Assembly (NCBI GenBank): GCA_001780725.1
Contig: MFIM01000009.1
Span: 656 to 64,655, forward strand
Source of the DNA: Candidatus Giovannonibacteria bacterium RIFCSPLOWO2_02_FULL_45_28
Lineage (GTDB): Bacteria; Patescibacteriota; Minisyncoccia; UBA11713; 2-01-FULL-45-33
Direction: 5' to 3'
DNA: 64,000 bases
Shown here one piece after another: positions 40,959 through 63,787 of this stretch; the stretch's first letter is position 1; every line of letters starts with the position of its first letter. The notes beneath the pieces are model-generated. The model had not been told where the DNA came from. It made no database searches and was given only the letters and a program-made list of their open reading frames with translations. The position numbers and the translations under genes are program-made.

Positions 40959-41777
40959 ATGGAAGAAAAACAGCAACAAGCATTATTGCCCAGCTTTGAA
41001 GATTTCAAGCACGAAAATGGCATTGCTTTTTGGTGGGCAAGCGAATTTATGACAATGCTCGGCTACGATGACTACGATTCTTTTAAGAGTAAAGTTGTTG
41101 GTCGGGCCACACAAGCACTTATATCGCTTGGCGTTGATCACTACTCCCAAATAACTCCAGCAAAACGAAAGGTTGGTAGTAATGATGTTGATGATCTAAA
41201 ATTATCAAGGTTTGCTTGCTACATTGTAGCAATGAATGGCAACCCACAGAAAAAAGAGGTTGCACTTGCGCAAGCATATTTTGCCGCAGAAACCCGCAAA
41301 CTAGAACTTTTTTTAGAAGGAAACGAGGATATAGCTCGCTTAATTTATCGAGAAGAATTTACGGCTGGTCAAAAATCTTTAATGGATACTGCCCAAAAAG
41401 CAGGGGTAGAAAATTATGCAGAATTTAATAACGCCGGCTATATAGGTTTGTATAATAAAACCGCTGAACAACTTAAAAGGCAGCGTAATTTACCACAATC
41501 GGATGCAACACGTATACAGGATTACATGGGGAGAACCGAGCTTGCTGCTAACTTGTTTAGGGTTACCCAGACCGAGGAACGTTTAAAACAAGATGAGGTA
41601 AAAACCCAACAAAACGCAAATAAGACGCACCGTAATATTGGTAGACGCATTAGACAAATGGTGGAAGAAAACACAGGAAAATTACCAGAACAATTACCAG
41701 TCCAAAGAAAACTTCCTGAAGTAAAAAAGGAGCTTAAAAAAGCCAAAAAGGCGCTTGAAAAGATTGATAAAAAATAA
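40959..41777 (+). CDS. dinD: DinD-like DNA-damage-inducible protein
   Basis: Collinear similarity (recalled, not searched) to E. coli DinD: LSRFACYIVAMNGNP, MGRTELAANLFRVTQTEERLKQD, QQNANKTH..GRRIRQ. Confidence 0.65.
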   Translation: MEEKQQQALLPSFEDFKHENGIAFWWASEFMTMLGYDDYDSFKSKVVGRATQALISLGVDHYSQITPAKRKVGSNDVDDLKLSRFACYIVAMNGNPQKKEVALAQAYFAAETRKLELFLEGNEDIARLIYREEFTAGQKSLMDTAQKAGVENYAEFNNAGYIGLYNKTAEQLKRQRNLPQSDATRIQDYMGRTELAANLFRVTQTEERLKQDEVKTQQNANKTHRNIGRRIRQMVEENTGKLPEQLPVQRKLPEVKKELKKAKKALEKIDKK

Positions 41778-41877: not shown

Positions 41878-42489
41878 ATGGCATGGACTAAGAACAAAAT
41901 AAAAGATGGATTTGATAAGTTTTATCAAGAACATGGCCGATATCCTACTGCACTAGAAATTGATGAGTATGCCGATCTTCCTTCTTCTCGCCAGATTCAG
42001 CGTCGTTTTGGCGGGTTACCAAAGTTACGGCAAGAATTGGGATTAGAAACTCTCGATTTTACAAAAGGCAGCATTCGCTCGCAAAAAGCTCAATATATTG
42101 GAAAACGCGGTCTAGATTTTGAAAAAGAAATCAGGAAAGTTTTATTGGAGAAGTTTGGAGAAGTATTTGTACATGAGCAGAAGCCCTTTAATGATTACGT
42201 TGGCAGACTAGATTTTTTTGTCTACGCAAAAAATAACAAGTTCGGCATAGATGTATTTTTTGCGAGCGACATACACAGTTTAATGGGATGCATCAACTAT
42301 AAACAAAGGTTGTATAAGAATTTTACTGATGGACTTATTTTACTTCAGCTTAATCCAGAGATAGATCAACGAATCATAGATCAATGTCTGTCTAATAAGA
42401 AAAACGCTCTTCCATCTAATATTGCTGTTCTATCTTTGGATAAATTTTTAGAATTCTTAAAAACTATACAACCATTACATGTTTTATAA
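41878..42489 (+). CDS. hypothetical protein (possible PD-(D/E)xK-like nuclease fold)
   Basis: HEQK and GRLDFFVY..GIDVF patterns. Weak inference. Confidence 0.35.
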   Translation: MAWTKNKIKDGFDKFYQEHGRYPTALEIDEYADLPSSRQIQRRFGGLPKLRQELGLETLDFTKGSIRSQKAQYIGKRGLDFEKEIRKVLLEKFGEVFVHEQKPFNDYVGRLDFFVYAKNNKFGIDVFFASDIHSLMGCINYKQRLYKNFTDGLILLQLNPEIDQRIIDQCLSNKKNALPSNIAVLSLDKFLEFLKTIQPLHVL

Positions 42490-50922: not shown

Positions 50923-51441
50923 TTAATGATCCGCGTAGAGATTTGGGCTGTAGTTGAACGGTCCACCACACTGTGCTCCGCACCAAGGATTTTCTCCATC
51001 CGTATGGTATGAATAGCATTTTTTGGCGCAGATGTTGTCGTTAGATGGGTCTTCAAGTTGGGTTACCAAATCGTACTTTTGTGGATTCGTAACCGTATAA
51101 TATCCGTAAGCATATGAATAATTGCCTTCTATCCATGGGTCCGAGGCGTTGTTTCGGGGATCTTCCGGCAGAACTCGCAGATAAGGCTTGAGCGCGTCTC
51201 CGAGCTCGTCCCAAGAAGCGTCTGTGCTATAAACCCAGCCAGAAACTGGTGGGTATTCTTGGTAGTCCGAGTAATAAAGCTCAAGCGCTTTTTTAATTTC
51301 CGCGAAGTTGGAAATTCTCTCGGCATCCCTTGCTCTTTTTCGCGCGGTGTTCGCAGAAGTCAAAACAACCGCAAAAATAAGCCCGGCTATGCCTACCACG
51401 ACCATAAGCTCAATCAAAGTAAATCCCCTTTTGTAGTTCAT
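50923..51441 (-). CDS. type IV pilin/pseudopilin (prepilin N-terminal methylation motif)
   Basis: MNYKRGFTLIELMVVVGIAGLI is the class III signal (G/FTLIE). Confidence 0.75.
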   Translation of the reverse strand: MNYKRGFTLIELMVVVGIAGLIFAVVLTSANTARKRARDAERISNFAEIKKALELYYSDYQEYPPVSGWVYSTDASWDELGDALKPYLRVLPEDPRNNASDPWIEGNYSYAYGYYTVTNPQKYDLVTQLEDPSNDNICAKKCYSYHTDGENPWCGAQCGGPFNYSPNLYADH

Positions 51442-51458
51442 AGTTTAATTATAACACA

Positions 51459-52283
51459 CTATCTTCCATAAACCTCACTCAACTTAGCTCTGGTTAATGG
51501 TCCCGCAATTCCAGTAACTTCAATACCGTATTTTTGCTGGAATCTTTCAACGGCTTTTTTAGTCGGCTCGTCGTAATAGCCGGTAATTAATTGCTCCGGA
51601 TAGATGGCAGGATCTTTCATAAGATATTGCTGCAGCAGTTTTACATGTTCTCCGCTTTGGCCTATGGCATATTTGGAGGTGAGCGGTTGGAGCTGTGCGG
51701 AGGTTTTTTCACTTGGTTTTTCTTGCGGTAAAATATCCGGCGTTTTTTCGGACCAGCCTGCCGGATGAGCAGGTTCAACATCCGATGTTGAGGCGGGTGG
51801 TGTTTTCTTAGACGACGGCGCAATTAAATCAAGTGCGGCATTTTTAACGTCTCGTCCCAAAGAAACAACGTAATCACGCCAGGAAAAAATATTGTTTAAA
51901 AACGGCAATGAAAAAGATATTTTTGGTATTTTGATTTCCGGAAACGAAAATTCGGGTAGTGAAAGAGCCACAAGAGCCTTCGCGTAACTATTATTTATAG
52001 ATTTTTCCGCAGAGACAACGGGTAGTTTAATCAGCGGCCATTGCCAGACAATGACGCCGATCAAAAAAAATACCGTGAAAATCGGCATAAAAAATTTTAG
52101 ACCCGCATTTCTCGGCGCCAATGTTTTCTTCGCATCGTTTTGCGCATAGCCCAAAATCGTTTTATCCCATAAATCCACATTTTCATTATAGAGTTTTTTA
52201 AAAAATAAAAAAAGAAAATTTGGTAAAAAATCTGTGGATAAGTCGCGATTATCCACACCCCATGGATTCCTGCCACTAGACAA
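51459..52283 (-). CDS. membrane-anchored protein with C-terminal peptidoglycan-binding domain
   Basis: C-terminal GQSGEHVKLLQQYL..YDEPTKKAVERFQQKYGIEVTGIAG resembles the PG_binding_1 repeat. Confidence 0.5.
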   Translation of the reverse strand: MSSGRNPWGVDNRDLSTDFLPNFLFLFFKKLYNENVDLWDKTILGYAQNDAKKTLAPRNAGLKFFMPIFTVFFLIGVIVWQWPLIKLPVVSAEKSINNSYAKALVALSLPEFSFPEIKIPKISFSLPFLNNIFSWRDYVVSLGRDVKNAALDLIAPSSKKTPPASTSDVEPAHPAGWSEKTPDILPQEKPSEKTSAQLQPLTSKYAIGQSGEHVKLLQQYLMKDPAIYPEQLITGYYDEPTKKAVERFQQKYGIEVTGIAGPLTRAKLSEVYGR

Positions 52284-52315
52284 GCTTTATGCAAGTTTAT
52301 TAAACTTATGCCTAT

Positions 52316-52534
52316 ATGAGTAAGAAATACTTAACAATTAATCAGGCTGCTAAATTAATAGGCGTTACTCCTTTAACGCTGCGCAATTGGGATAACGCGC
52401 GTAAATTTCAGGCGTTCCGGCACCCGATTAATAATTATCGCGTGTATACCCTTGATCAAATTGAGGGCTTGCTAAAAAAACTCGGCATGCCAAAACCGGC
52501 GAAAAAATTAGTTATTCAGGTGCTGGAGGATTAG
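52316..52534 (+). CDS. small MerR/excisionase-type HTH DNA-binding protein
   Basis: LTINQAAKLIGVTPLTLRNWD..YRVYT. Confidence 0.5.
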   Translation: MSKKYLTINQAAKLIGVTPLTLRNWDNARKFQAFRHPINNYRVYTLDQIEGLLKKLGMPKPAKKLVIQVLED

Positions 52535-52543
52535 TAAATTTCC

Positions 52544-52900
52544 GTGTCCCAAAACGACATTAAAATTTTCATAGATTTTTTCCACGGCGCCTGCTTGAAA
52601 ATCCGCAAAGAAAAACCGGTTTTTCAAAGAGGCAAAGACGGAAAGCTTGTAAAAAACGCGTTGAGGACATTTTCCCGGACGCAGCTTGAGATGCTGGCGG
52701 TTTGGTTTTTGGCAAAAAAACACAAACTTGCTCCCGCCATAGGAACGATGTTTTCCAAAAAACTCCTTGAAGAATTGGAGAAAAAAATAAAAAGCCCGTC
52801 GTTTTGGAAAGAATTGGACGAGATTTTTGAAAAACACTATCCAAGACAAATTTCCTTAATAGAGCTAAAAAACAGCAATGATACTGCAAAAAGAAAATAA
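52544..52900 (+). CDS. hypothetical protein
   Basis: Sits between the HTH gene and def. No motif recognised. Confidence 0.3.
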   Translation: MSQNDIKIFIDFFHGACLKIRKEKPVFQRGKDGKLVKNALRTFSRTQLEMLAVWFLAKKHKLAPAIGTMFSKKLLEELEKKIKSPSFWKELDEIFEKHYPRQISLIELKNSNDTAKRK

Positions 52901-53396
52901 GGATTTGCGCAAAGCCGCTGAAAAAGTCACCGATTTAAAGTCTGCTGAAATAAAACATTTGATAGGGCGGATGGCCGAAGCGATGTTTAAAGAGCCTGAC
53001 GGGGTCGGTATTGCGGCGCCACAGATCGGAGAAAGCCTCCGCGTCTTTTTGGTAGCAAAGGATATTTTTGCTCCGTTGCCGGAAAGAGACGGCAAAGAAA
53101 AAAAAGAAAGGCAAAAAGAATATCTAGCGTTTATTAATCCAGTTATGAAAAAATATTCACAGAAAAAATCCAAGGATATAGAGGGCTGCCTATCGGTGCG
53201 AGGATTTTACGGCGAGGTTCAGAGGCCGGAAAAGATTTTTATTGAATATATTGACGAAAGCGGAAAAAAACATGCCAGAGGGGCAAGTGGGCTTTTTGCG
53301 CGCGTAATTCAGCACGAACTGGACCATTTGGAAGGCGTTTTATTTATTGACAAAGCAAAAAACATAAAACGCCTGGATTTTAAACATGAAAAATAA
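52878..53396 (+). CDS. def: peptide deformylase
   Basis: GIAAPQIG, EGCLS, QHELDHLEG. Confidence 0.9.
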   Translation: MILQKENKDLRKAAEKVTDLKSAEIKHLIGRMAEAMFKEPDGVGIAAPQIGESLRVFLVAKDIFAPLPERDGKEKKERQKEYLAFINPVMKKYSQKKSKDIEGCLSVRGFYGEVQRPEKIFIEYIDESGKKHARGASGLFARVIQHELDHLEGVLFIDKAKNIKRLDFKHEK

Positions 53397-54105
53397 AATC
53401 GTTTTCTTCGGCGGCTTTAAAGGGTTTTCTGAAATATATCTCAATGCTCTCAAGAGCGCCGGTTTTGAAATTGTCCCTCGGGCCGAAGACGCGGATTTTG
53501 GCGTGATCGCTTATTACGGCAAGATTATACCGAAAGCCGTTTTGGAGCTTCCCAAGAAAGGCTTTCTGAACGCTCATCCCTCGCTCTTGCCACGCTGGAG
53601 AGGGCCGTCTCCGGTGCAGGCGGCTATTTTGGCCGGGGACAAAACCACCGGCGTTACTATACACATAGCGATTGAGAAGCCCGACGCTGGGCCAATTTTG
53701 GCCCAAAAAGAAATCCCGATACTGCCGCGGGATACTTGTTTAAGCTTAACCGGCAAACTTGCCGAGGAGGGGGCTTCTCTTTTAGTACAGACTGTTAAAA
53801 AATGGCTTTCTGGCGAAATTGTGCCCAAAGAGCAGGATAGTTCCAAGGCTACTTTTACAAAATTGATTAAAAAAGCGGACGGGGAAATAGACTGGTCAAA
53901 ACCGGCAGAATATATAGAGCGGATGGTGCGGGCTTATGATCCGTGGCCGGGGACGTATACTAAGATGAAAAACGGGAGGATTTTGAAGATAAAAAAAGCA
54001 GAAGTTGTAAACGGTGTTTTAAAACCCATCATTGTCCAGCCGGAAGGAAAAAAAGAAATGTCCTGGGAAGCATTTTTGCGCGGCCACCGCGATTGGAAAA
54101 TGTGA
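53386..54105 (+). CDS. fmt: methionyl-tRNA formyltransferase (short form)
   Basis: NAHPSLLPRWRG and a formyl-transferase N-domain; 239 aa. Confidence 0.8.
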   Translation: MKNKIVFFGGFKGFSEIYLNALKSAGFEIVPRAEDADFGVIAYYGKIIPKAVLELPKKGFLNAHPSLLPRWRGPSPVQAAILAGDKTTGVTIHIAIEKPDAGPILAQKEIPILPRDTCLSLTGKLAEEGASLLVQTVKKWLSGEIVPKEQDSSKATFTKLIKKADGEIDWSKPAEYIERMVRAYDPWPGTYTKMKNGRILKIKKAEVVNGVLKPIIVQPEGKKEMSWEAFLRGHRDWKM

Positions 54106-54106
54106 G

Positions 54107-54778
54107 TTAAAAAAGCATTGCTGCGCCTACGGCCACCGCGTTTTTGCCGAAAACGGACTTTGTGTGCCGCACGCCAAGCGCTTTTGCGAATTTGGCCGTG
54201 AAATTTTTTCTTTTTGACACTCCCCCGCCGACAATAACTCTCCTTATTTTATAAATTTTTACGGTTCTGCTTAATTGCTCCGCCAAAAAGTCTATTAAGG
54301 CGCGGTAGTCGCGCCCATCCCTTATTTTCTGGTATTTTTTTTCCCATTGCTCCGGATATTCAAATTTTCTGATTTTTAAAATTTTTCCGTTTTTGCCGAC
54401 GGCGCGCCCGACGCCCGTCCCCAGAGTCAGGAAGAGCGTCCTTTGCGTGTTTTTGTATTCCGCCTGCGCGAAACATCTTGCGTCGTGATCTATTTTTATC
54501 CTCGCGGCCGGAAAAAGAGGTTTGAAATTCAAATTTTTGATATACGATATGTTCGCTGCCGAAATAAAAACTGCGCCTTTGGCAGGACCGGGCACCGCAA
54601 TGCCTATTTTAGTAAAGCGGGCGGAGTGATTCAAAACCAGATTCCTTAGAGTTTTTTTAAACCCTCCCAAATTCTTCGGCGTTTTTACCTCGCGTGCTTT
54701 TATAACCCGCTTGCCGTTCCACCAAACAACTCTGATTTTCGATCCGCCAATGTCTATGCCTAAAACAGATTTTTTCAT
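54107..54778 (-). CDS. ROK/BadF-type sugar kinase-like ATPase
   Basis: LGIDIGGSKIR; ASKHA-fold glycine motifs. Confidence 0.45.
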   Translation of the reverse strand: MKKSVLGIDIGGSKIRVVWWNGKRVIKAREVKTPKNLGGFKKTLRNLVLNHSARFTKIGIAVPGPAKGAVFISAANISYIKNLNFKPLFPAARIKIDHDARCFAQAEYKNTQRTLFLTLGTGVGRAVGKNGKILKIRKFEYPEQWEKKYQKIRDGRDYRALIDFLAEQLSRTVKIYKIRRVIVGGGVSKRKNFTAKFAKALGVRHTKSVFGKNAVAVGAAMLF

Positions 54779-54780
54779 TG

Positions 54781-54851
54781 CTGGGGGGGAAGGATTCGAA
54801 CCTTCGTACCAAGCTCCAAAGGCTTGTGTCCTACCACTAGACGACCCCCCA
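54781..54851 (-). tRNA. tRNA-Gln (anticodon UUG)
   Basis: Folded by hand: U1-A72 acceptor TGGGGGG/CCCCCCA, anticodon loop CTTTGGA, T-arm GAAGG-TTCGAAT-CCTTC, discriminator G. Confidence 0.85.
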
Positions 54852-54883
54852 ATATTTTATTATTTTACTAACATTTTCATTTT

Positions 54884-54912
54884 TTGGCAATCGGGCGTCT
54901 TGGTGATATAAT
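54884..54912 (+). promoter_or_regulatory. near-consensus promoter (-35 TTGGCA, 17-nt spacer, extended -10 TGATATAAT) giving a leaderless GAF-gene transcript
   Basis: ATG at 54920 lies 7 nt after the -10. No Shine-Dalgarno sequence. Confidence 0.5.
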
Positions 54913-54919
54913 AAACATT

Positions 54920-55411
54920 ATGAAACTGGCGCCGATTCCGGAAAATGAAAAAGAGAGGCTTTTGGCGCTGCGGCGCCTCAAGATTTTAGATACCAAGCCG
55001 GACAAGCGACTTGATCTTTTGACGAAGACCGCAGTCAAAAGGTTTGACGTTCCAATTTCAACAATATCCATTATTGATGAAGAAAGGGAATGGTTTAAAT
55101 CCTGCCAAGGATTGCCGAAAAAAGAAGGCGATAGGGCGATCTCGTTTTGCGGGCATGCAATGCTCGCAAAAAATATTTTTATAGTGGAAGACACATTGAA
55201 AGACGAACGGTTTGCGGACAATCCGTATGTAGTCGGGCCGCCCTATTTACGCTTTTACGCCGGCGTGGCGATTTACGAACACAAAAGCGGTCAGCCAATA
55301 GGAGTATTTTGCATAAAGGATACGGAGCCGCGGACAATGTCTCCGGAAGACATAAGTTTTTTGATAAACTTGGCAGAAAAAGCAGAAGATATACTAAACG
55401 GCGAAGCTTGA
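54920..55411 (+). CDS. stand-alone GAF-domain protein
   Basis: DERFADNPYVVGPPYLRFYAGVAIYEHKSGQPIGVFCIKDTEPR. Confidence 0.6.
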   Translation: MKLAPIPENEKERLLALRRLKILDTKPDKRLDLLTKTAVKRFDVPISTISIIDEEREWFKSCQGLPKKEGDRAISFCGHAMLAKNIFIVEDTLKDERFADNPYVVGPPYLRFYAGVAIYEHKSGQPIGVFCIKDTEPRTMSPEDISFLINLAEKAEDILNGEA

Positions 55412-55486
55412 CTTTTTGACGCATGGGTGTTAGTATATACCCACAACATGATACCGCCAAATAAGGCGGTTTTGTGTTGAAAACAC

Positions 55487-55852
55487 ATGAATTACCTTGT
55501 TTTAGCAGTAATTACGGCGCTTGTTGCGTTTCCGCAACAAGCGCACGAACAGGCTCTGCCGGAAGCGCCTGCAGGAATTGCGCAAAGCGCTGCGCCTGAA
55601 ATTTTGGAGAAAATCGCCTTTTGCGAGTCGCAAGGCAGACATTTTGACGAAAACGGTAAAGTGCTCATCGGCGGAATTAACAAACATGACATCGGCAAGT
55701 ATCAGATCAACTCTCTTTACTGGCGCGAACTTGCAGAACGGCTTGGGTACGACATTGAAGCAGAAGAAGGCAACGAGGCGATGGCAATAGAACTTTACAG
55801 AAGATACGGGACTGCGCCGTGGAAGTGGTCAAAGAAATGCTGGAGCGCGTAA
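55487..55852 (+). CDS. small secreted transglycosylase-like (Rpf-type) protein
   Basis: Signal peptide; IAFCESQGRHFDENG..DIGKYQIN..YW resembles the Rpf/lytic transglycosylase core. Confidence 0.5.
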   Translation: MNYLVLAVITALVAFPQQAHEQALPEAPAGIAQSAAPEILEKIAFCESQGRHFDENGKVLIGGINKHDIGKYQINSLYWRELAERLGYDIEAEEGNEAMAIELYRRYGTAPWKWSKKCWSA

Positions 55853-55858
55853 AACAGC

Positions 55859-56902
55859 CTATTTGTAAGTCGCAATCTTAATCAGTGCGAGCTCAAGCGG
55901 CAAATGCGCCGCCGCATCGTCCATTGGTGTGGTAAGCGCTTCTAAAATTTGGCGCAAGGCGTGCTCTGCTACCGGCGATGTGATTTTTTTTCCGTCAATG
56001 AGGGAGGAGAAAGAAGCAATTTCCTCTGCCGCAAATTCGTGTTCCAAAATGTGTTTTGTTTTGGGGTCTAATGCCAAAAAAAGTATCGCCCGAAAGTTGC
56101 GCAGCATCAATTTTCCCAAAAGCGTCGGATCAGTCCCCTGCTCCAAAACCTTGTCCAGCGCGGCAAGCGTTTCCGCGACGTTTTTCCCAAAAGCCGCGCC
56201 CACGATGCGCTCCACACTTTCTTCTTCGGGCGCGCCTAAAATCACGCGCACATCTTTTTCCTCAATCTTTTTTAATCCGCCGCCAACGACTTGAAATAAA
56301 ATATTTTCCGCGTCTCTTAGCGAGCCATCAGCAAAAAAAGCGATAATTTTGAGCGCATCGTCGCTCGCGGAAAACTCCTCCTTGGAGGATATTTTTTTGA
56401 GTTCCCCGACTATTTCCGGAATGGCTATTTTATGGAACGGAAAATGCTGCGTGCGCGATATGATGGTGTCCGGGACTTTTATGAGTTCCGTCGTGGCTAA
56501 GATAAATATCGCGTGCTCCGGCGGTTCTTCCAGTGTCTTTAAAAGCGCGTTAAATGCCTCTTTTGTAAGCATGTGTACTTCGTCAATTATGTAAACTTTG
56601 AAATCGGAACGGAAAGGAACAATGCGCACGGCTTCCCTTAGCGCTCTTGCTTCATCTATTCCGCGCGAAGACGCCGCGTCTATCTCTATAATGTCTTCAT
56701 CGGCGCACCCGGCCTCGCGCGCCAAAATTCTGGCGACGGTGGTTTTCCCGGTGCCGCGCGGACCGGAGAAAAGATATGCATGCGCGATCCGTTTTTGCGA
56801 AACGGCATTTTTTAAAATTTGAATCGTGCTGTTTTGTCCTACTACCTCCTCAAATTTCTGCGGCCTGTATTTGCGATAAAAAACTAGATTATTTTGCGGC
56901 AT
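55859..56902 (-). CDS. dnaX: DNA polymerase III gamma/tau subunit (short, 347 aa)
   Basis: YRKYRPQKFEEVVGQ..HAYLFSGPRGTGKTT and the box VII/sensor motifs. Confidence 0.85.
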   Translation of the reverse strand: MPQNNLVFYRKYRPQKFEEVVGQNSTIQILKNAVSQKRIAHAYLFSGPRGTGKTTVARILAREAGCADEDIIEIDAASSRGIDEARALREAVRIVPFRSDFKVYIIDEVHMLTKEAFNALLKTLEEPPEHAIFILATTELIKVPDTIISRTQHFPFHKIAIPEIVGELKKISSKEEFSASDDALKIIAFFADGSLRDAENILFQVVGGGLKKIEEKDVRVILGAPEEESVERIVGAAFGKNVAETLAALDKVLEQGTDPTLLGKLMLRNFRAILFLALDPKTKHILEHEFAAEEIASFSSLIDGKKITSPVAEHALRQILEALTTPMDDAAAHLPLELALIKIATYK

Positions 56903-57545
56903 ATTTTCTAAACACTATAAATTTAAATCCGGTAAAATTCCAGATTATTACTAAAATTGAAGCAAGAACCTTTGCCAGGTTAAGCCATCTTCCCGGAGTA
57001 AAATAGGCCGGCGCCGGAATATAAGTCGTAATAATTATTATGGAAACTGTGTTTAAAATAAGCCCGCCGACGGTGATGGCGAGGAATTTTGGGAAGTCGG
57101 AGAAAAGCCCGTTAGAGGCCCTCGCTGCAAGCGAGGCAGTCCCGCCTGCAGCTGGACTTGCCTTTAACGTGGTAAACACCCACAGCTTGTTCCACAAATA
57201 CCCGTTAAAAACCGCGATTATAAACCCAGGCATGTTTACCCACCCGACAACAATTCCAGCCGTGATGCCAGTTAAGTTGCTTACAACATTGAGGGTTGTA
57301 AAATCAATCAAAGTGGAGAGAAAGCCGGCGGTAACATATTTTCCGAATTGTTCAAAAAACGGGTAGTAACGCCCCAAAAATCCTCCAAGCCATACTCCAA
57401 ATGCAAAAAAGACCGGAACGCCGACCAAAAAAGCAGCCTCTTTATAAGGAAACGAAATCTCCAAATAAAAAGCCATAACCAGCGCCAAAAGCCCCGTAAA
57501 AAACCCAACCACAGCCCCAATCCAATAATCTTTTTTTGTGATCAT
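56889..57545 (-). CDS. GtrA-like polytopic membrane protein
   Basis: Duplicated 2x GtrA-like halves (..N..WNKLWVF.., ..KFIVFRK). Confidence 0.55.
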   Translation of the reverse strand: MITKKDYWIGAVVGFFTGLLALVMAFYLEISFPYKEAAFLVGVPVFFAFGVWLGGFLGRYYPFFEQFGKYVTAGFLSTLIDFTTLNVVSNLTGITAGIVVGWVNMPGFIIAVFNGYLWNKLWVFTTLKASPAAGGTASLAARASNGLFSDFPKFLAITVGGLILNTVSIIIITTYIPAPAYFTPGRWLNLAKVLASILVIIWNFTGFKFIVFRKYAAK

Positions 57546-59965
57546 AACACCTGATGCCTTTTTCTAATTTCCTCCTCTACTTCTTCGCGGGGGCGGGAAT
57601 ATTTGGAACGCGAGAGCTCTTTTATGCGTTCCGCCGTTTGCGTATTGTCCGCCGTCGCTTGTCTGTAAGGTGGCGTTTTTATGTTGAACGGCTTTGATGT
57701 CTGCCCGTCTATTAAAAGCTTAAGGTAAGCGTTGAAGTTATCAATATTCAGCAAATCCTGCGCGGAAAATACCGGTTGAAACTGCTTTTCCATATATTCC
57801 GCGTCGTCCGAGCCGATGCGGAAAGACAAAATTGATCCGACGTTTCCAAAAACCGCCTTTTTTATCTCTTCTTCCAATTGCCCGATAAATTGGTGCGCAA
57901 TTATAAGATTGAGTTTGTATTTTCTTGCCTCCGAAAGGATGGTGGCAATTGATTTTGTCGTAACGTTTTGAAATTCGTCTATATAAAGATAAAAAGCTCC
58001 GCGTTCCGTTTGCGGCTTGTCCGTGCGGGACAGCGCCGCCATCAAAATTTTCCCTACCATAATAAGGCCCAAAAGGCTGGAATTTAACTCGCCCAATTTG
58101 CCTTTAGAAAGGTTTAAAAGCAAAATCTTCTTTCCGTCCATCACGTCGCGGATGTTAAACGCCGAATGCTCCTGCGCTATAATCGGGCGCATAATTTCAT
58201 TTGCCAAAAAAGTGTCAAATTTGCTTACGATGTAGGGTACCATATTTGCCAATGATTGCTCGCCGCCGGCTTTCTCCGCGATTTGCCGCCAGAAAGTTTC
58301 CACCACGATGTTTTTGGAGCGCGAGAGTTTATGGTCGCGGAAAGATTTGTCGGTCAGAACTCTTTCAATATCCAAAAGAGTGTTGCCGCTTTCCGGATCT
58401 TCCATTACAAGCATCGCGGCGTTCCTGAAATATTGTTCAAACATCGGGCCTCCGGCAATGGACATATTGAAGAGTTTATTAAAAATTTCCAAAAGTTCGT
58501 TGACTATAAGACTGCGCTGTTCCGGAAATCTGGGGTCAAATTCCAGCATATTGAGTCCAATTGGATGCCCCGCGTCCCCGGGATCAAAATAAATGACGTC
58601 CTCCGCGCGCTCTTCGGGTATAAGAGGCAGCACCGACCCGATAAGATCTCCGTGCGGATCAACCACAGCAACCCCATTTCCCTGCTGAATATCCTGAATG
58701 ATCATATTGTGCATAAGGCTGGATTTGCCTGTGCCTGTCTGCCCGATTATATAAAAATGGCGTTCCCTGTCCTCTTTTTTAATATGAACCGGCCGCTCCT
58801 CGCCCCTAAAAGAACTTACACCGAGCATTATGCCTTCTTTGGGTAAATTTATCGGTGCTGCGGCCTCTCTGGCTTTTAGGGTGCGCACCGCAGGCGCAGC
58901 TCTTTTGGAATAAGGCAAATGGTAAACGCTGGCGATTTCTTCAACATTCAGATTTAAAACATGGTTTTCGTCAAATAGCCTGAATGAAAAACGCTCAACC
59001 AGTTTTCGCAGCGCTTTCCCGCCAAGCTCTTTTATTTTAAATTCGCTGCCTTCGGGATTTGTAAACTGGAAAAAACTTGCTCCTAAATTTTTAAGCAAAG
59101 CGTCGGCCCGTTCCGTGGAAGCGGCGGACGCAAGAATGCGAACGTTGCATTCAAACGTTGTTTTGCCGGCTTTCTCTTCAAAAAGCTTGGCCAGCTCCTC
59201 GTCGTATGCGGTTCTTTGGTCTTTGGATTTTTTCTTGCCGGAAAAAATATCCCAAAACACGCTCCAAAATCCGGTTTTACCCAAAACTTCTTTTCGGGAA
59301 ATCCCCTCTTTTAATTTTTGCGCTGCGCTGTGTGCGTGTTTTTTTGTGTTCTCGCTGCCGAATCTTAAAACTATCTGCAAGGCCGCTCCCTCGCCATATT
59401 CTTTAATTTTAGAAAAGGCGGAAGTTATTGTTTCCAAAGGGTCGGCCGCAAGCTTCTGGTAAGTTTTTATCGGTAAAATTTCGGATCCGGAATGCAAAAC
59501 CAAAGCGCCTGCGGTAGCGCCCTCAACGTTAAAAATATTGTAATCCGACACCCTTTCTATTTTGGCCTCCGGAAAGGAGCCGTGAAGCTGGTTTTGGAGC
59601 AGAGATTCATAAATTTTCGGGAACGCAATGTAGAAAAAAATTTCACTCCCGCGGTTGTGAGAAGCGATTTCCATGGCAAAAGACGGATTGCCCCAGAGTT
59701 TGCCTGCAACGCCTTTCTTTTTCGTTTGAACAAGCCCGTTTAAAAGTTGTTCCATTTGCATTATGAAGTTTTTCAACGCTTCCCTTTCATCTACTTTTTG
59801 GGTTCCAACAGCGGTTTCCGGAGCGCTGATTAAATAAAGCGCAAGGCCCAAGCCGGAGCTGACATTGCGGAATTTTTTCGCGCGCCGATAGAAAAAAACG
59901 GAAAACAGCCAAAGCAAAATTGCCAGCAAGATAAAAAATATAATATAAATGGTTGCGGCGTTCAC
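57542..59965 (-). CDS. membrane-anchored VirD4/TraG/TraD-like type IV coupling protein family ATPase
   Basis: N-terminal TM; Walker A YIIGQTGTGKSS; Walker B LYIDEFQN; 807 aa. Confidence 0.5.
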   Translation of the reverse strand: MNAATIYIIFFILLAILLWLFSVFFYRRAKKFRNVSSGLGLALYLISAPETAVGTQKVDEREALKNFIMQMEQLLNGLVQTKKKGVAGKLWGNPSFAMEIASHNRGSEIFFYIAFPKIYESLLQNQLHGSFPEAKIERVSDYNIFNVEGATAGALVLHSGSEILPIKTYQKLAADPLETITSAFSKIKEYGEGAALQIVLRFGSENTKKHAHSAAQKLKEGISRKEVLGKTGFWSVFWDIFSGKKKSKDQRTAYDEELAKLFEEKAGKTTFECNVRILASAASTERADALLKNLGASFFQFTNPEGSEFKIKELGGKALRKLVERFSFRLFDENHVLNLNVEEIASVYHLPYSKRAAPAVRTLKAREAAAPINLPKEGIMLGVSSFRGEERPVHIKKEDRERHFYIIGQTGTGKSSLMHNMIIQDIQQGNGVAVVDPHGDLIGSVLPLIPEERAEDVIYFDPGDAGHPIGLNMLEFDPRFPEQRSLIVNELLEIFNKLFNMSIAGGPMFEQYFRNAAMLVMEDPESGNTLLDIERVLTDKSFRDHKLSRSKNIVVETFWRQIAEKAGGEQSLANMVPYIVSKFDTFLANEIMRPIIAQEHSAFNIRDVMDGKKILLLNLSKGKLGELNSSLLGLIMVGKILMAALSRTDKPQTERGAFYLYIDEFQNVTTKSIATILSEARKYKLNLIIAHQFIGQLEEEIKKAVFGNVGSILSFRIGSDDAEYMEKQFQPVFSAQDLLNIDNFNAYLKLLIDGQTSKPFNIKTPPYRQATADNTQTAERIKELSRSKYSRPREEVEEEIRKRHQVL

Positions 59966-60351
59966 TTGATTTTTCTGGCTTGAAGTAGCTTTTCGTAATA
60001 TTTGTCCGTCAAAGTGTCGTGGAATTCGTCTAGAAGGTGCGGGTTTTTAAGAGAGTTGACGACTTTAAGCGCGGATACAATTCCCTTTGTTAGTGCCAGC
60101 GAAACGAGCTCTTCAATAATGTGCGCGTGTTCCTGCTCCTTAAGGTCGTAGGCGGCTTTTTGGGCGGCGTCATCCGAAATGGAAGGCGTCGGCGGCGGTC
60201 CGCCGGTTGGCGGATGCGCGGCTTCACGTATCGCTTCGCGCACAATCTCTTTTTCGTGCTTTGCCTCGCCGCGTCCGGCAAGCTCCTTTTTTCTGGCCTC
60301 CAGCTGTTCTTCCAGCCATTTTATTTCCTCATGTACGGATTCCTGGGGCAT
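59962..60351 (-). CDS. hypothetical protein translationally coupled to the coupling-protein-like gene
   Basis: 4-nt overlap with the downstream gene start; Pro/Gly-rich middle region. Confidence 0.4.
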   Translation of the reverse strand: MPQESVHEEIKWLEEQLEARKKELAGRGEAKHEKEIVREAIREAAHPPTGGPPPTPSISDDAAQKAAYDLKEQEHAHIIEELVSLALTKGIVSALKVVNSLKNPHLLDEFHDTLTDKYYEKLLQARKIK

Positions 60352-60374: not shown

Positions 60375-62063
60375 ATGCGAGGAGCTACTTTGTGGCTTGT
60401 TATTATTTTACTTATAGCGGTTTTTTTCCGTTTTTACGATTTAAAAAATGTGCCGCCAGGGCTGTGGGCGGACGAAGCAATAAACGGGAATAATGCGGTG
60501 GAGGCGAACTGGAAAGTTTTTTACCCGGAGAATTTTGGCAGAGAAGGCCTTTTTATAAATATTCAATCGTTGTTTGTCACCGCCTTCGGCAACGAGCCGT
60601 GGGTATTGCGCTTGCCTTCGGCGATTTTCGGCGCATTGACCGTGCTGGGGCTTTATTTAATGACACGCGAACTATTTAGCGGAAAGGTTGCGTTGTTCGC
60701 TTCTTTTTTTCTGGCAACTTCTTTTTGGCATATTAATTTTTCCCGCATCGGATTCCGCGCGATTATGGCGCCGTTTTTTTTGGTCTGGAGTTTCTATTTT
60801 TTATTTTTAGGAATGAGAAAAACTGCGACCTTCTCAACACTCGGTGTTGAATCACCAAAAACACAGAGTGTTTTCCCAGTCGCAGTTTTTGCTTTGGCTG
60901 GATTACTTTTTGGCCTCGGCTTTCACTCCTATATTGCTTACCGAATTGCGCCCGTAATCGCACTTTTGCCGCTTTGGAAATTTTATAAATTGCGGTTGAT
61001 TGAAGTCCGACTTCAATCAGTTTCTGATGGAAGTCGGACTTCAATCATTTCTCGCGCTTGCACGCCGTGCCTAATTGGCCTTTTTATTTTCATGGCTTTC
61101 GTTGCCGCTCTTCCTTTGCTTTGGTATTATGCGCAGAATCCGGCGGATTTTTTGGGAAGAACTTCGGCAATATCAATTTTCCGATCACCGAACCCGCTCG
61201 CTCAATTTTCAGAAAATTTTGTAAAAACTCTGGGGATGTTCAATGTTGTAGGCGATTTTAACTGGCGGCACAATCTTGCCGGCTCTCCCCAGCTTTGGTG
61301 GTCAGTAGGAATTTTATTTCTTTTTGGTCTTTTGGTCGCATTGCGCTCCTCAACACTCGGTGTTAAATCCCAAAAAACACCGAGTGTTTTCCCGCGCAAT
61401 GCGTATAATTTTGTTCTGCTTTGGTTTGCAATCATGCTATTGCCAGTCGCTCTTTCCAACGAATCTTTGCCGCATGCCCTTCGCGCCATTGTTTTGATAC
61501 CGCCTGCGATGATTTTTGCCGCTTTGGGGCTGGAACGGATTATTGAAAAATTTAAAACGTGGCTAGAAAAGCAAAAAAACAATTGGCCGAGCAAGCTAAA
61601 CCAGCTTCTTCGCATACAGCGCGAGCTTATTTTATTGCTTTTTGTATTTTTTGCCGCCAATATTGCCCATGCTTATAACGCATACTTTCTTCGCTGGGCT
61701 CCAAATTTTAACGTTTACCAAGCATTTCAGGTCGACATTACGGAAAAGGCTCATTGGCTTAATCAACAGCCAGAAAACATTAAAAAATATGTTATTACTG
61801 ACGCCGTTGATCGTATAGATATAAGCGGCTCTCCAATGTCGCTTCAACCGGTTATTTTTATCACAAATACTTTTTTTGAAAAAGTTCAGAAAGAAAAAAA
61901 TATTTATTATTTTGGCGCAAACAATCTGAGCGGCGTTGATTGCTCCGGCAAATGCGTTATTATCCCGGTTGAATCAAAACCCACAATTTATAAAACCCTG
62001 AAACAAAAAATCCCAGGTTTGCGCTTGGATGCTTCCCCTGGGTTTGTGATTTTTAGAAAATGA
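60375..62063 (+). CDS. GT-C fold glycosyltransferase family 39 (PMT/ArnT-like)
   Basis: N-terminal DE motif (WADEAINGNNA), about 12 TM. Carries three in-frame palindromic inserts. Confidence 0.7.
   Translation: MRGATLWLVIILLIAVFFRFYDLKNVPPGLWADEAINGNNAVEANWKVFYPENFGREGLFINIQSLFVTAFGNEPWVLRLPSAIFGALTVLGLYLMTRELFSGKVALFASFFLATSFWHINFSRIGFRAIMAPFFLVWSFYFLFLGMRKTATFSTLGVESPKTQSVFPVAVFALAGLLFGLGFHSYIAYRIAPVIALLPLWKFYKLRLIEVRLQSVSDGSRTSIISRACTPCLIGLFIFMAFVAALPLLWYYAQNPADFLGRTSAISIFRSPNPLAQFSENFVKTLGMFNVVGDFNWRHNLAGSPQLWWSVGILFLFGLLVALRSSTLGVKSQKTPSVFPRNAYNFVLLWFAIMLLPVALSNESLPHALRAIVLIPPAMIFAALGLERIIEKFKTWLEKQKNNWPSKLNQLLRIQRELILLLFVFFAANIAHAYNAYFLRWAPNFNVYQAFQVDITEKAHWLNQQPENIKKYVITDAVDRIDISGSPMSLQPVIFITNTFFEKVQKEKNIYYFGANNLSGVDCSGKCVIIPVESKPTIYKTLKQKIPGLRLDASPGFVIFRK
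60821..60877 (+). repeat. 57-bp in-frame palindromic element, copy 1, inside the GT39 gene
   Basis: aactgcgacc..CAACACTCGGTGTTgaatcaccaaaaaCACAGAGTGTT..gtcgcagtt: nested inverted repeats. About 90% identical core to 61338..61402. Confidence 0.7.
60997..61047 (+). repeat. tandem 23-nt palindromes (tgattgaagtccgacttcaatca / tgatggaagtcggacttcaatca) inside the GT39 gene
   Basis: Read directly. In-frame, encoding LIEVRLQSVSDGSRTSII. Confidence 0.65.
61338..61402 (+). repeat. 65-bp in-frame palindromic element, copy 2, inside the GT39 gene
   Basis: gcattgcgc..CAACACTCGGTGTTaaatcccaaaaaaCACCGAGTGTT..gcgcaatgc. Confidence 0.7.
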
Positions 62064-63787
62064 ATAAATACGCGAATTATTTAGCAATTTTGATGCTCGC
62101 GATAATGTTTGCGCTGATGTTTGGGTCAAGCATAAATGATTCGGCGATTTTTGATGAGGTGGCGCATATCGGGGCGGGATACACATATTTGAAGTATCAA
62201 GACGGAAGGCTGAATCCGGAGCACCCACCGCTTTTGAAAAGTTTGGCCGCGTTGCCACTTGTGTTTCTGAATTTGAAATTTGACCAAGGACAGCAATTTT
62301 GGACAATAGAAAATGTGAACGATCGGCAATGGCTTGCCGGCAATCACCTTCTATATGAAGCTGGCAACGATGCAGATCAAATTCTTTTTTGGTCGCGATT
62401 GCCAATGATTTTGCTAACTATTCTTTTTGGGTGGATTTTGTTTTGGTGGGTAAAAAGGCGCTATGGAGCGAGAGTGGGATTGCTTACTTTATTTTTCTTT
62501 TCCGTCTCTCCTACTTTTTTAGCGCACGGAAGATATGTTACAACCGATGTCGGAGCCGCATTCGGATTTTTTCTTGGAATCATTTTTTTTCTAAAGTTTT
62601 TGGAAAGGTGGGATTTAAAATCAGCAATTTGGCTAGGTATAGTACTGGGGTTTGCCCTGCTTCTTAAATTTTCGCTTGTTTTATTGCTGCCGGTTTATTT
62701 GATTTTGGGAGTTTTTCGGATATTTCTCGGTCGCAGAAAAGATAACCCCTCCCCCCAACCCACTCCCCTAGGGGGAGTGGGGAATTGGGTGGGGTTCCTC
62801 TCATTATTGGGGACACTTGCTTTCTCCAGCCTCATTGCTTTAGCCATCGTTTGTATCGCTTATATCTCCCAAATCTGGAATTATCCTCATGACCAGCAGA
62901 TAAAAGATTCGCGCTACATTCTTGCGGGCTACCAATATCAATCTTTGGCAAAACTTGATTTTTGGCTTACAGAACACAAGCTAACGCGGCCGCTAGGGCT
63001 TTACTCGCAGGGCTTTTTGATGGTTGCGCGGCGCACTGCCGGTGGAAATACGGCTTACTTTATGGGCGAGGTTTCTTCAAAAGGATGGTGGTCATATTTT
63101 CCGACTCTGGCAATCACAAAAGAACAGCTTGGGTTTTATATTTTAGCGGCGGTGGCGATTTTTTGGGCAATAAAAAAACGAGCAAAGCCGGATTTTGTAA
63201 GTTTATCTGCAATTGTTTTTATAATCTTTTATTGGATTTCTTCAATTTTAAATCCGTTAAACATCGGTGTGAGGCACGTGCTCCCGACTTTTCCGTTTTT
63301 ATATTTTTTAGTGGCGAAAGAATTATCTGAAATAAAACTGAATTTGTTAACCGTAGTTATAATGCTATGGATGATTGTGGAAATAATTCTAGCTTTTCCC
63401 TACTATCTTTCTTATTACAACGCGCTGGGAGGCGGTTTGCAAAACGGCTACAAAATCGCAACTGATTCCAACCATGACTGGGGGCAGGACTTAAAACGCC
63501 TCCGCGATTATGTGGAAAAAAGTAATATTTCAAAAATAAATCTTGATTATTTCGGAGGCGGTTCACCAAAATATTATCTAGGAGAAAAATATGAAGGCTG
63601 GTGGTCATCGCGCGGCGCTCCTCCTGCCGGCTCTTATTTTGCCGTATCGCTTAATTCTTTGACCGGCAACCAAGCCAAACCGATCGGCGATGTGCAGATC
63701 AAGCCGGAAGACACCTATTCTTGGCTCAAAAACAAAACCCCGATTGCTCGGGGTGGAATATCTATTTTGATATTTAAGATAGATTAA
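62060..63787 (+). CDS. second GT-C glycosyltransferase family 39 (ArnT/PMT-like) paralogue
   Basis: DEVAH..GY..HPPLLK N-terminal motif, multi-TM. In-frame GC palindrome insert at 62744..62800. Confidence 0.7.
   Translation: MNKYANYLAILMLAIMFALMFGSSINDSAIFDEVAHIGAGYTYLKYQDGRLNPEHPPLLKSLAALPLVFLNLKFDQGQQFWTIENVNDRQWLAGNHLLYEAGNDADQILFWSRLPMILLTILFGWILFWWVKRRYGARVGLLTLFFFSVSPTFLAHGRYVTTDVGAAFGFFLGIIFFLKFLERWDLKSAIWLGIVLGFALLLKFSLVLLLPVYLILGVFRIFLGRRKDNPSPQPTPLGGVGNWVGFLSLLGTLAFSSLIALAIVCIAYISQIWNYPHDQQIKDSRYILAGYQYQSLAKLDFWLTEHKLTRPLGLYSQGFLMVARRTAGGNTAYFMGEVSSKGWWSYFPTLAITKEQLGFYILAAVAIFWAIKKRAKPDFVSLSAIVFIIFYWISSILNPLNIGVRHVLPTFPFLYFLVAKELSEIKLNLLTVVIMLWMIVEIILAFPYYLSYYNALGGGLQNGYKIATDSNHDWGQDLKRLRDYVEKSNISKINLDYFGGGSPKYYLGEKYEGWWSSRGAPPAGSYFAVSLNSLTGNQAKPIGDVQIKPEDTYSWLKNKTPIARGGISILIFKID
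62759..62781 (+). repeat. GC-rich palindrome CCCACTCCCC-ta-GGGGAGTGGG inside the second GT39 gene, preceded by AACCCCTCCCCCCAACC
   Basis: Read directly. Encodes DNPSPQPTPLGGVGNW. Confidence 0.6.

Follow-up and report, generated by a model that had tools for sequence, protein, structure and literature searches.

A coupling-protein-like ATPase and its small helical partner as a two-part module in chromosomes of Parcubacteria-group bacteria

Canonical type IV coupling proteins (T4CPs) possess a transmembrane (TM) domain, usually of two helices, which runs straight into the nucleotide-binding domain. Small helical partners have precedents among them, namely CagZ with Cag-beta and the adaptors of DotL. 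In the plasmid family pWBG4, the protein DetA, termed "VirD4/MobB coupling protein", adjoins the MobC-family relaxase DetB (PMC4993578). For Patescibacteria, a recent survey (Quinonero-Coronel et al., 2025, PMC12102498) counts 5,713 T4CP homologues in 2,918 of 3,035 genomes as against 2,417 genomes with VirB4; 148 of these homologues are near virB4, relaxases are nearly absent, and a MOB_C relaxase is found near a t4cp gene in a few cases (39). The survey also reports virB4 beside dnaA/dnaN and VirB3/6/8/TrsD genes, lists VirB4 for Giovannonibacteria GW2011_GWB1_46_20, gives the T4CP homologue of Southlakia epibionticum as non-essential and its type IV secretion system (T4SS) genes as essential, and raises exaptation of the orphan T4CPs as a possibility. 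In the Southlakia Tn-seq study, the authors could recognise no coupling protein within the T4SS cluster. The epibiotic lifestyle of Saccharibacteria depends to an important degree on type IV pili as well as on T4SS. Orphan T4CP homologues were already reported for Patescibacteria in 2025, and the ATPase described here almost certainly belongs to the class counted in PMC12102498. That account, in its available sections, mentions neither a VirB4-like N-domain, a small partner or its fusion, and the alternation of TM helix and fusion, nor a position in the ribosomal gene cluster or a link to relaxase-adjacent ATPases of plasmids and phages.

The stretch of DNA analysed here (the window, 64 kb) belongs to a Candidatus Giovannonibacteria chromosome and encodes an 807-aa ATPase (57542..59965, minus strand, GTG start, ORF call), already bearing a UniRef name as TraD DNA-binding-domain protein. 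All its domains are given on the minus strand, in the order TM helix, VirB4-N-domain-like DUF8128, T4CP-like P-loop domain and C-terminal helical tail. The single TM helix (approximately residues 5-26; 59888..59953; hydrophobicity and model) coincides with the one strongly hydrophobic segment of the N-terminus (Kyte-Doolittle 19-mer score 2.45), residues 3-37 being helical in the predicted structure; the motif RRAKKFR directly after it places the remainder of the protein in the cytoplasm. The N-domain of about 310 residues (Pfam DUF8128, approximately residues 40-350; 58916..59848; precomputed PF26449 and Foldseek) is alpha/beta and folds like the N-terminal domain of VirB4. The P-loop translocase domain (approximately residues 379-770; 57656..58831; Pfam and catalytic motifs) contains an all-alpha insert at residues 483-610 and both Walker motifs announced by the earlier note, Walker A GQTGTGKS at residues 408-415 (58721..58744) and Walker B YIDEFQ at residues 661-666 (57971..57991), neither of which varies across 22 homologues. 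The structures used were AlphaFold models (pLDDT 80 and 79).

The earlier note had assigned this ATPase to the TrwB/VirD4 type, proposed profile searches with TrwB_AAD_bind and T4SS-DNA_transf as a check, and named FtsK/HerA as the family whose recovery would overturn the assignment. Both models, together with TraG-D_C, exceed their gathering scores (38.7, 24.0 and 23.6 bits, respectively, with DUF87 at 33.7), and the best sequence matches in a PDB profile search are TrwB (E 2e-7) and DotL (E 2e-3), PDB 8dol (CagZ with Cag-beta) being also among the matches. The protein is consequently coupling-protein-like by these profiles, and its identification as FtsK or HerA proper was rejected. The Pfam T4CP models are common to the window ATPase and to canonical TrwB, TraD, VirD4, DotL and Cag-beta; the former differs, however, in the VirB4-N-fold domain inserted between TM and nucleotide-binding parts, which the label "TrwB/VirD4 type" overlooks, in the lack of relaxase or mating-pore genes nearby, and in scores far under the cut-offs of NCBIfam T4CP models (e.g., 52 vs 366).

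Outside Patescibacteria, the closest relatives are full-length matches without a TM helix, encoded directly before a Replic_Relax relaxase on Bacillota plasmids and in SPO1-like phages, which adds to the evidence for coupling-protein kinship. BLASTP aligns residues 108-765 with the relaxase-adjacent ATPase of a Bacillus plasmid (E 7e-43), hhalign aligns residues 73-723 with the Staphylococcus aureus counterpart (probability 99.3%), and the match to phrog_5156 reaches E 1e-80. The plasmid gene order is ATPase, Replic_Relax, transfer genes and VirB4, and phage Goe9 carries the same ATPase-relaxase pair as gp27.4/gp27.3; from gene order and PMC4993578 we take the S. aureus record to be a plasmid of the pWBG4 family. 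Plasmid ATPases and gp27.4 have the same domain order and catalytic motifs as the window ATPase and are homologous to it in both N-domain and P-loop domain. They differ in being followed by the relaxase inside transfer clusters or phage genomes, whereas the window ATPase is chromosomal and relaxase-less, and in that they lack a TM helix and are longer by about 180 aa at the C-terminus; the small helical partner has no counterpart in the plasmid proteins. The family either derives from these TM-less ATPases, encoded directly before Replic_Relax (MOB_C-type) relaxases, or has an ancestor in common with them. In Patescibacteria it has shed the relaxase and acquired the small helical domain.

This domain is represented in the window by a soluble helical protein of 129 aa (59962..60351, minus strand, ORF call) in which a Pro-rich linker joins a charged N-terminal helix to a conserved bundle of helices at the C-terminus (EHxxxIEEL..KGI.SAL.V...L.NPHLLDEFHD.L), and for which no family was matched in Pfam, NCBIfam, PHROG or PDB. 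Its proposed translational coupling to the ATPase proved tighter than claimed: the TGA stop shares bases with the GTG start of the ATPase (GTGA), and among 80 related loci, all from named Parcubacteria-group (Paceibacteria) lineages or unclassified, a partner homologue is immediately upstream in 71 and fused in frame in 41. A profile search with the small domain over 1.84 billion representative proteins gave 1307 matches. In all of them the domain occupies the N-terminus, either with DUF8128 behind it or as the sole domain, and has no other architecture. Because of this constancy of position, fusion and architecture the 129-aa protein appears to be a dedicated partner of the ATPase, and both the helical partner, previously undescribed, and the partnership itself appear to be new. 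Together the two genes encode a two-part module, the small soluble protein just described and the ATPase with its TM helix, VirB4-N-domain-like domain and T4CP-like P-loop domain.

The module occurs in all 80 sampled relatives and does so among housekeeping genes. Split-type loci have the TM helix in 30 of 30 cases (scores 1.9-3.4) and fused-type loci in none (score at most 1.3), so that membrane helix and fusion are strictly mutually exclusive across the sample, a point that likewise appears to be new; "membrane-anchored" therefore holds for the window's sub-clade but not for fused and plasmid relatives. A neighbour-joining tree rooted on the TM-less plasmid proteins separates the two forms into two clades with one exception. 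Since two cytoplasmic domains with a single TM helix between them are topologically impossible, the cytoplasm must be where both parts work jointly. Genes of the fused clade follow the order secY-adk-map-X-ndk (X, ATPase gene), and this housekeeping slot between map and ndk appears to be a new observation. More than 7558 homologues of the ATPase exist, and those from different named candidate phyla are 47-55% identical.

How this module functions can be put forward tentatively, at somewhat less than even confidence: a domesticated ring translocase with its adaptor, exapted as the coupling ATPase of a T4SS encoded elsewhere, with something other than relaxase-bound DNA as its substrate. Like TrwB, VirB4 and HerA, the ATPase would assemble into a ring on the inner side of the membrane and would spend ATP on moving a polymer substrate or passing it on. 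The VirB4-like N-domain may dock this ring on inner-membrane VirB3/6/8-like parts of the T4SS, while the small protein, by analogy with CagZ-Cag-beta and the DotL adaptors, may bind the ATPase as adaptor or regulator; the partner system could be the chromosomal, relaxase-less one that the 2025 survey lists for a Giovannonibacteria genome, probably the one from which the window stems. Against this reading, T4SS genes are absent from the 64-kb window and from within 8 kb of the ATPase in the 80 loci. We consider it possible, although rather unlikely, that the ring instead serves a housekeeping task independent of any T4SS. It would then work at the membrane on incoming DNA or on that of the cell itself, in segregating or clearing the chromosome at division, in the cytoplasmic stage of DNA uptake or in repair, and the small domain would localise or regulate it. 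T4CPs being commoner than VirB4, dispensable in Southlakia for T4SS-dependent epibiotic growth (PMC12102498) and unrecognisable in its T4SS cluster would fit such a role, as would very strong conservation, a place amid genes for translation, secretion and replication (secY-adk-map-X-ndk or X-GtrA-dnaX), fold relatives that are DNA translocases or helicases (TrwB, HerA, DptH, FtsK) and the ability of plasmid, phage and fused forms to manage without a membrane anchor; against it, the VirB4-type N-domain is known from T4SS ATPases only, and neither NurA, an FtsK gamma domain nor another DNA-binding or nuclease partner was found beside the ATPase in the window. That the protein is the Patescibacteria VirB4 itself, or a second paralogue energising assembly rather than substrate coupling, is improbable: its two-domain layout of about 800 aa is VirB4-like and Foldseek ranks full-length VirB4 (TrwK) at the top for the full-length model (E 3e-13), but it lacks sequence-level membership with TrwK of R388 or the Thermoanaerobacter VirB4 C-domain (PDB 4ag5), matches neither AAA_10 nor CagE_TrbE_VirB in Pfam, gives 3% probability in hhalign with the genuine VirB4 (AAA_10) from the equivalent cluster on a Bacillus plasmid as against 99.3% for the relaxase-adjacent ATPase, and adjoins neither VirB3/6/8/TrsD genes nor the dnaA/dnaN that the survey gives as neighbours of virB4.

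The relaxase-adjacent plasmid and phage relatives and the 39 MOB_C cases of the survey might also suggest that the gene was left behind or is carried by an integrated element, conjugative or mobilisable, and that its product still couples DNA to transfer in the classical way. We regard this as very improbable given flanks devoid of relaxase, integrase, VirB4 and repeats, unremarkable GC content, a chromosomal site stable across whole clades and identity declining in step with taxonomy. The ATPase stop shares bases (ATGA) with the start of a directly downstream gene for a GtrA-family membrane protein with five hydrophobic segments (56889..57545, minus strand; Pfam GtrA_DPMS_TM, E 5e-11), and two PMT_2 (GT-C) glycosyltransferase genes diverge from the run. 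An ATPase energising envelope glycosylation together with this flippase-type protein and the two transferases deserves little credence: in the split clade, exactly the one with the TM anchor, GtrA is downstream in 18 loci and PMT_2 upstream in 13-16, but neither the larger fused clade nor any plasmid or phage relative has such neighbours, and no T4CP-like ATPase is known to us to take part in the transport of lipid-linked sugars. Being present in 18 of 80 loci only, all of the split clade, the GtrA-like gene is a lineage-specific neighbour and not a universal part of the module. The same-strand run is closed by dnaX (DNA polymerase III gamma/tau; 55859..56902, minus strand; Pfam families), which overlaps the GtrA gene by 14 nt, is downstream of the ATPase in 16 of 80 loci and has an operon in common with it, nothing more.

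The earlier note had further joined ATPase and small gene with a type IV pilin into one surface machinery for DNA uptake or host contact. The precursor itself, a pilin or pseudopilin of 172 aa (50923..51441, minus strand), is real: its N-terminus MNYKRG|FTLIELMVV carries the class-III signal, with Pfam N_methyl matched at E 8.8e-8 and NCBIfam IV_pilin_GFxxxE at 27.8 bits (cut-off 16.3). When the entire window is scanned by regex in six frames, this signal occurs once, at 51426 (minus strand), the sole other pattern match (36987) falling within an unrelated plus-strand ORF and having no signal-peptide context. The three ORFs do share 9.4 kb, and type IV pili and T4SS matter for epibiotic Saccharibacteria, but the 6.1 kb between pilin and ATPase hold ten protein genes and a tRNA in mixed orientation, just 1 of the 80 loci has a pilin within 8 kb of the ATPase, even the closest relative (82% identical) having none at the corresponding position, and no PilB/C/M/T, VirB4/B6 or relaxase gene was found in the window, where the note had advised looking for VirB4/VirB6 and PilB/PilC. 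Type IV pilus and type IV secretion system are different machines, and T4CPs, to our knowledge, are not components of the former. A single apparatus is thus hardly credible; the pilin was rejected as part of the module and is a separate type IV pilus subunit gene unrelated to the ATPase. Coordinates and sequence features of all three ORFs were otherwise correct, and their proteins recur on independent public contigs, where the boundaries are identical or almost so; for the pilin, public annotation places the gene-caller start eight codons later, which would remove the signal.

The three ORFs singled out in the earlier note, namely the gene for the ATPase (57542..59965, minus strand, 807 aa), the small 129-aa gene directly upstream of it (59962..60351, minus strand) and a type IV pilin gene (50923..51441, minus strand), were all recovered by ORF calling on the window, which is a chromosomal stretch of Candidatus Giovannonibacteria (Parcubacteria/Paceibacteria) with ribosomal proteins, chaperones, tRNA synthetases and cell-wall genes in its remaining part (Pfam annotation). 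Translational coupling of the small gene to the ATPase gene is borne out, as its TGA stop overlaps the GTG start of the ATPase (GTGA); further downstream the ATG of a GtrA-family gene overlaps the ATPase stop as ATGA, and the GtrA-family gene and dnaX overlap by 14 nt. The ATPase, 100% identical to the NCBI entry ‘UX43_C0002G0070’, is coupling-protein-like by sequence. Its P-loop nucleotide-binding domain belongs to the VirD4/VirB4/HerA branch and has intact Walker A and B motifs, both invariant, and the hidden Markov models proposed for checking it, TrwB_AAD_bind (38.7 versus 20.5, over 48 residues only) and T4SS-DNA_transf (24.0 versus 20.1), scored above Pfam gathering scores together with TraG-D_C (23.6 versus 22) and DUF87. 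NCBIfam models for type IV coupling proteins (T4CPs) match around the P-loop only and all fall far under their cut-offs (e.g., SXT_TraD, 52 versus 366), while among PDB sequences TrwB and DotL match best, ahead of HerA, and neither VirB4 nor FtsK was detected.

Attribution to the TrwB/VirD4 type has the three Pfam T4CP models for it and the NCBIfam cut-offs against it, and the domain layout departs from it: in canonical T4CPs the N-terminal membrane domain directly precedes the nucleotide-binding domain, whereas here ~310 residues of a VirB4-like domain (DUF8128, hereafter N-domain) come after a single transmembrane (TM) helix. Linkage to relaxase or mating-pore genes, typical of T4CPs, is absent from the 64-kb window and was found within 8 kb in none of 80 related loci from different GTDB species (the best 80 of at least 505 matches, i.e., close relatives; ORFs called by a simple longest-ORF procedure). 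The likeness to VirB4 comprises the N-terminal domain and the C-terminal ATPase fold, and the difference lies in the lack of a Pfam AAA_10 or CagE_TrbE_VirB match and of VirB3/6/8 neighbours. Comparison with known folds gave 27.7 for the VirB4 C-domain, 27.1 for DptH, 26.7 for TrwB, 24.5 for HerA, 23.4 for DotL and 16.4 for FtsK, the structures being predictions; the alignment used in the structural work combined shortened search-hit sequences with seven locus rows. In the AlphaFold model alone (pLDDT 80), residues 483-610 between Walker A and B would form an all-alpha insert in the nucleotide-binding domain. The FtsK/HerA class, named at the outset as the reading that would overturn a coupling protein, does not fit: the ATPase shows neither the FtsK/SpoIIIE combination of FtsK_SpoIIIE motor domain, multi-pass N-terminal membrane domain and gamma domain nor the HerA combination of a central domain after a HAS-barrel with a NurA-type partner.

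The small gene is a dedicated partner of the ATPase. In 71 of the 80 loci a homologue of it directly precedes the ATPase; in 41 loci it is fused in-frame to the ATPase N-terminus (905-977 aa), and six further proteins of ~912 aa appear fused as well, with divergence beyond tblastn detection. Fused proteins are all devoid of a hydrophobic N-terminal segment (maximal 19-residue Kyte-Doolittle score at most 1.3), and split ATPases (798-830 aa) all possess one (1.9-3.4), as topology requires if both parts act in the cytoplasm, since a single TM helix cannot separate two cytoplasmic domains. Membrane anchoring of the ATPase, stated in the earlier note, holds for the window protein with its one strongly hydrophobic N-terminal segment but not for the fused or plasmid relatives. 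In neighbour-joining analysis of the conserved core (a simple distance method, no support values, root placed on plasmid relatives), a fused clade lacking the TM helix separates from a split clade having it, with one fused representative (L033) at the base of the latter; with this rooting the split, anchored form of the window looks derived.

The small domain is characterized by a conserved N-terminal helix, F-x-SPEEE-I/L-x-x-L, and a C-terminal helical bundle, …EHD…EL…KGI-x-NAL…NPH-L/I-x-DDFH…. Searches of Pfam, NCBIfam, PHROGs, PDB sequences and PDB profiles returned no family match, only coiled-coil noise, and hhalign gave no match to the plasmid ATPase described below or to its relaxase. 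A word-indexed homologue search found ‘hypothetical’ proteins of Giovannonibacteria only, and a profile search over 1.84 billion representative proteins yielded 1307 matches, 415 of them at E ≤ 1e-10. The domain is N-terminal in all of the 149 top-ranking hits inspected, either alone (~130 aa) or continuing into the ATPase N-domain; the many intermediate lengths stem from contig-end fragments or frameshifted assemblies. One 166-aa hit (P0268) ends in a very hydrophobic stretch (score 3.56), the sole case seen of a TM-like segment after the small domain, and could represent a third architecture or a protein cut off at a contig end.

More than 7558 ATPase homologues were scored, and identity is 47-55% across candidate phyla named Ryan-, Niyogi-, Sung-, Harrison-, Campbell-, Nomura- and Taylorbacteria, organism names being unreliable in many MAG records. 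De novo clustering of neighbours revealed two stable contexts. In the split clade two divergent PMT_2 glycosyltransferases are followed by the small gene, the ATPase, GtrA and dnaX (neighbours in 13-18 loci); in the fused clade the order on one strand is rpsE … secY – adk – map – [fused ATPase] – ndk – … β-CASP RNase, with ndk following the ATPase in 35 loci and map preceding it in 29 (identities confirmed by Pfam). Relaxase, integrase and T4SS genes are missing from either context. The ATPase gene is a vertically inherited housekeeping gene and not a mobile element, a reading rejected on synteny and conservation. In the window the PMT_2 (GT-C) genes stand in tandem (60375..62063 and 62060..63787, plus strand), divergent from the run of small gene, ATPase, GtrA and dnaX, an arrangement kept in 13-16 split-clade loci; together with the GtrA-like gene they suggest that a set of genes for surface glycosylation encloses the ATPase module. 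A few kb beyond them on the same contig, past the right end of the window, a LAGLIDADG homing endonuclease ORF (1624..2049 of locus L001) and an IS200-like Y1 transposase (5172..5828) are located.

Outside Patescibacteria, tblastn of the ATPase against plasmids gave 347 records; twenty matches, from Bacillus, Priestia, Staphylococcus, Streptomyces and haloarchaeal plasmids, reach a query coverage of 80% or more, with identities of 20-30%. On a Bacillus plasmid and on S. aureus pJRA307-1 an ATPase homologue without TM segment (904 and 861 aa, respectively) opens a transfer cluster and is followed directly by a Replic_Relax (PF13814) relaxase, transfer genes and a separate true VirB4 (AAA_10). 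These relaxase-adjacent DUF8128/DUF87 ATPases are homologous to the window protein over its full length, N-domain and P-loop domain included: residues 108-765 align with the Bacillus protein in BLASTP (E 7e-43), the family profile aligns with the S. aureus protein in hhalign over residues 73-723 at a probability of 99.3%, as against 3% with the VirB4 of the Bacillus cluster, and phrog_5156 matches the window protein end-to-end (E 1e-80, residues 80-803). They differ in what lies directly downstream, Replic_Relax on the plasmids and a GtrA-like gene in the window, and no relaxase appears in the related Patescibacteria loci. A review of staphylococcal plasmids describes DetA, the first gene of the pWBG4-family cluster, as a ‘VirD4/MobB coupling protein’ beside the MobC-family relaxase DetB (PMC4993578); judging by gene order, pJRA307-1 is probably a member of this family. 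The same two-domain ATPase is encoded by phage G (gp156) and by Bacillus phage Goe9 (L088, 4743..8280) as gp27.4, in the latter followed by a ‘replication-relaxation’ protein (gp27.3); genomes of SPO1-like lytic phages carry in this pair a module of plasmid-transfer type. On a Sulfitobacter plasmid (L086, 6989..8176) a 395-aa stand-alone P-loop domain without N-domain lies amid transposases and is 35% identical to the window protein, above the full-length plasmid relatives.

According to the available part of a recent survey, 5,713 VirD4-type T4CP homologues occur in 2,918 of 3,035 Patescibacteria genomes, only 148 of them near virB4, and relaxases, mostly of MOB_C type, are found in only 103 genomes (Quiñonero-Coronel et al., 2025, PMC12102498). 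These counts, along with a UniRef label that assigns a TraD DNA-binding domain to the ATPase, mean that orphan T4CP-like genes in Patescibacteria were already known. Our literature search retrieved no publication on DUF8128, none on TraG of Parcubacteria and nothing informative on FtsK in Patescibacteria; within the literature found, including that part of the survey, the VirB4-type N-domain, the dedicated small partner with its fusion, the TM-or-fusion rule, the ribosomal-cluster position and the derivation from relaxase-adjacent plasmid and phage ATPases are apparently undescribed.

By analogy with TrwB, VirB4 and HerA the ATPase would form a ring, in which ATP hydrolysis drives movement or hand-over of a polymer. 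As seen in R388 structures, VirB4 is tethered at the inner membrane through its N-domain, with VirB3 and VirB8 as anchors, and a coupling-type ATPase bearing that N-domain could use a docking site of the same sort; the N-domain is highly conserved, in line with a conserved contact between proteins. As an adaptor or regulator, the small helical protein would bind the ATPase in the cytoplasm. Action of the module with the chromosomal T4SS is quite possible and is our tentative preference. The Tn-seq study of Southlakia described a T4SS cluster without recognisable coupling or relaxase proteins, and the 2025 survey, in its available text, holds that exaptation ‘cannot be ruled out’, as the T4CP homologue of Southlakia is not essential and its T4SS genes are (PMC12102498). 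A translocase working without any T4SS is rather unlikely in our estimation, and the remaining alternatives carry lower weights than these two roles.

Taken to its full extent, the proposal is that the small domain and the ATPase with VirB4-type N-domain constitute a Paceibacteria-specific, universal housekeeping machine derived from a coupling ATPase of plasmid or phage origin that became domesticated, and serving as substrate receptor of a relaxase-less T4SS or as T4SS-free translocase, the small domain being a new adaptor fold and the ATPase lineage an intermediate between VirB4 and canonical T4CPs; as a whole this is doubtful. If true, the receptor reading would supply the long-missing decider of what the essential T4SS of Patescibacteria transports. 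Patescibacteria account for a large part of bacterial diversity and rely on host cells. In the one lineage tested their chromosomal T4SS is essential, and the module may be regarded as a concrete candidate for its coupling step or for a separate core translocase. Experimental handles are offered by the dedicated partner domain (pull-downs or co-folding), by the natural dichotomy of fused and split, soluble and anchored forms, and by clear plasmid and phage ancestors in which this ATPase is paired with a relaxase. The presence of a VirB4-type N-domain on a coupling-type ATPase is also relevant to the divergence of the two T4SS ATPases.

The pilin is a separate feature. Prepilin-signal models support its class III signal (short basic leader, G-1, F+1, E+5 and hydrophobic helix), the precursor starting MNYKRG|FTLIELMVVVGIAGLIFAVV, with FTLIELMVV after the leader; N_methyl matches at E 8.8e-8 and TIGR02532 at 27.8 (cut-off 16.3), scores with GspG- and PilA-specific models are under cut-offs, and six-frame translation reveals no other prepilin signal in the window. 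The earlier note had likened pilin, ATPase and small gene to surface machinery proposed for DNA uptake or host interaction in episymbiotic Patescibacteria; a single apparatus of this kind is rejected on synteny. The interval between pilin and ATPase comprises a PG_binding_1 protein, a MerR-like regulator, a 118-aa ORF, def, fmt, a ROK kinase, tRNA-Gln, a GAF protein, a 121-aa ORF, dnaX and GtrA on both strands, and a pilin homologue lies within 8 kb of the ATPase relative in one of the 80 loci. The accompanying suggestion to look for VirB4/VirB6 and PilB/PilC returned none of them, nor PilD, PilM, PilT or a relaxase, in Pfam searches of annotated genes and unannotated ORFs of the window. The next gene upstream of that for the pilin (51459..52283, minus strand) encodes 274 aa with PG_binding_1 at the C-terminus; both this protein and the pilin went undetected at the corresponding place of the closest locus (L004, 82% identical), so this corner of the chromosome is variable. 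For annotation it follows that ‘pilin plus T4CP’ on one contig should not be taken for a single machine.

Several other ORFs of the window deserve mention. A 121-aa protein with apparent signal peptide (55487..55852, plus strand), conserved only in locus L005, has a ‘CESQG’ motif presumably resembling that of lysozyme-like or Rpf-type transglycosylases; its candidacy as a VirB1-like lytic enzyme was dismissed, with no match in Pfam, NCBIfam, PHROGs or PDB. Overlapping ORFs of 395 and 430 aa (5897..7084 and 7078..8370, plus strand) upstream of infA and rpsM belong to no family and have no PDB sequence match, the first showing only a weak sub-threshold FtsA-like match (E 0.002). The 189-aa product of 3294..3863 (minus strand) combines a PaaX central, Cas2-like domain (E 5e-21) with a weak CRISPR_Cas2 match, no CRISPR context being noticed. 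Adjacent ORFs at 40959..41777 and 41878..42489 (plus strand), with sub-threshold Bro-N and HNH_repeat (homing-endonuclease-associated) matches, look like a mobile-element remnant amid housekeeping genes. Finally, a 788-aa protein (20503..22869, plus strand) with Peptidase_S74 (intramolecular chaperone of tail-spike type) and Bact_surface_Ig-like domains is encoded at a flip of GC skew from about +0.2 to -0.15, beside tRNA-Lys (22987..23061, minus strand), and may be phage-derived or a surface-fibre gene.
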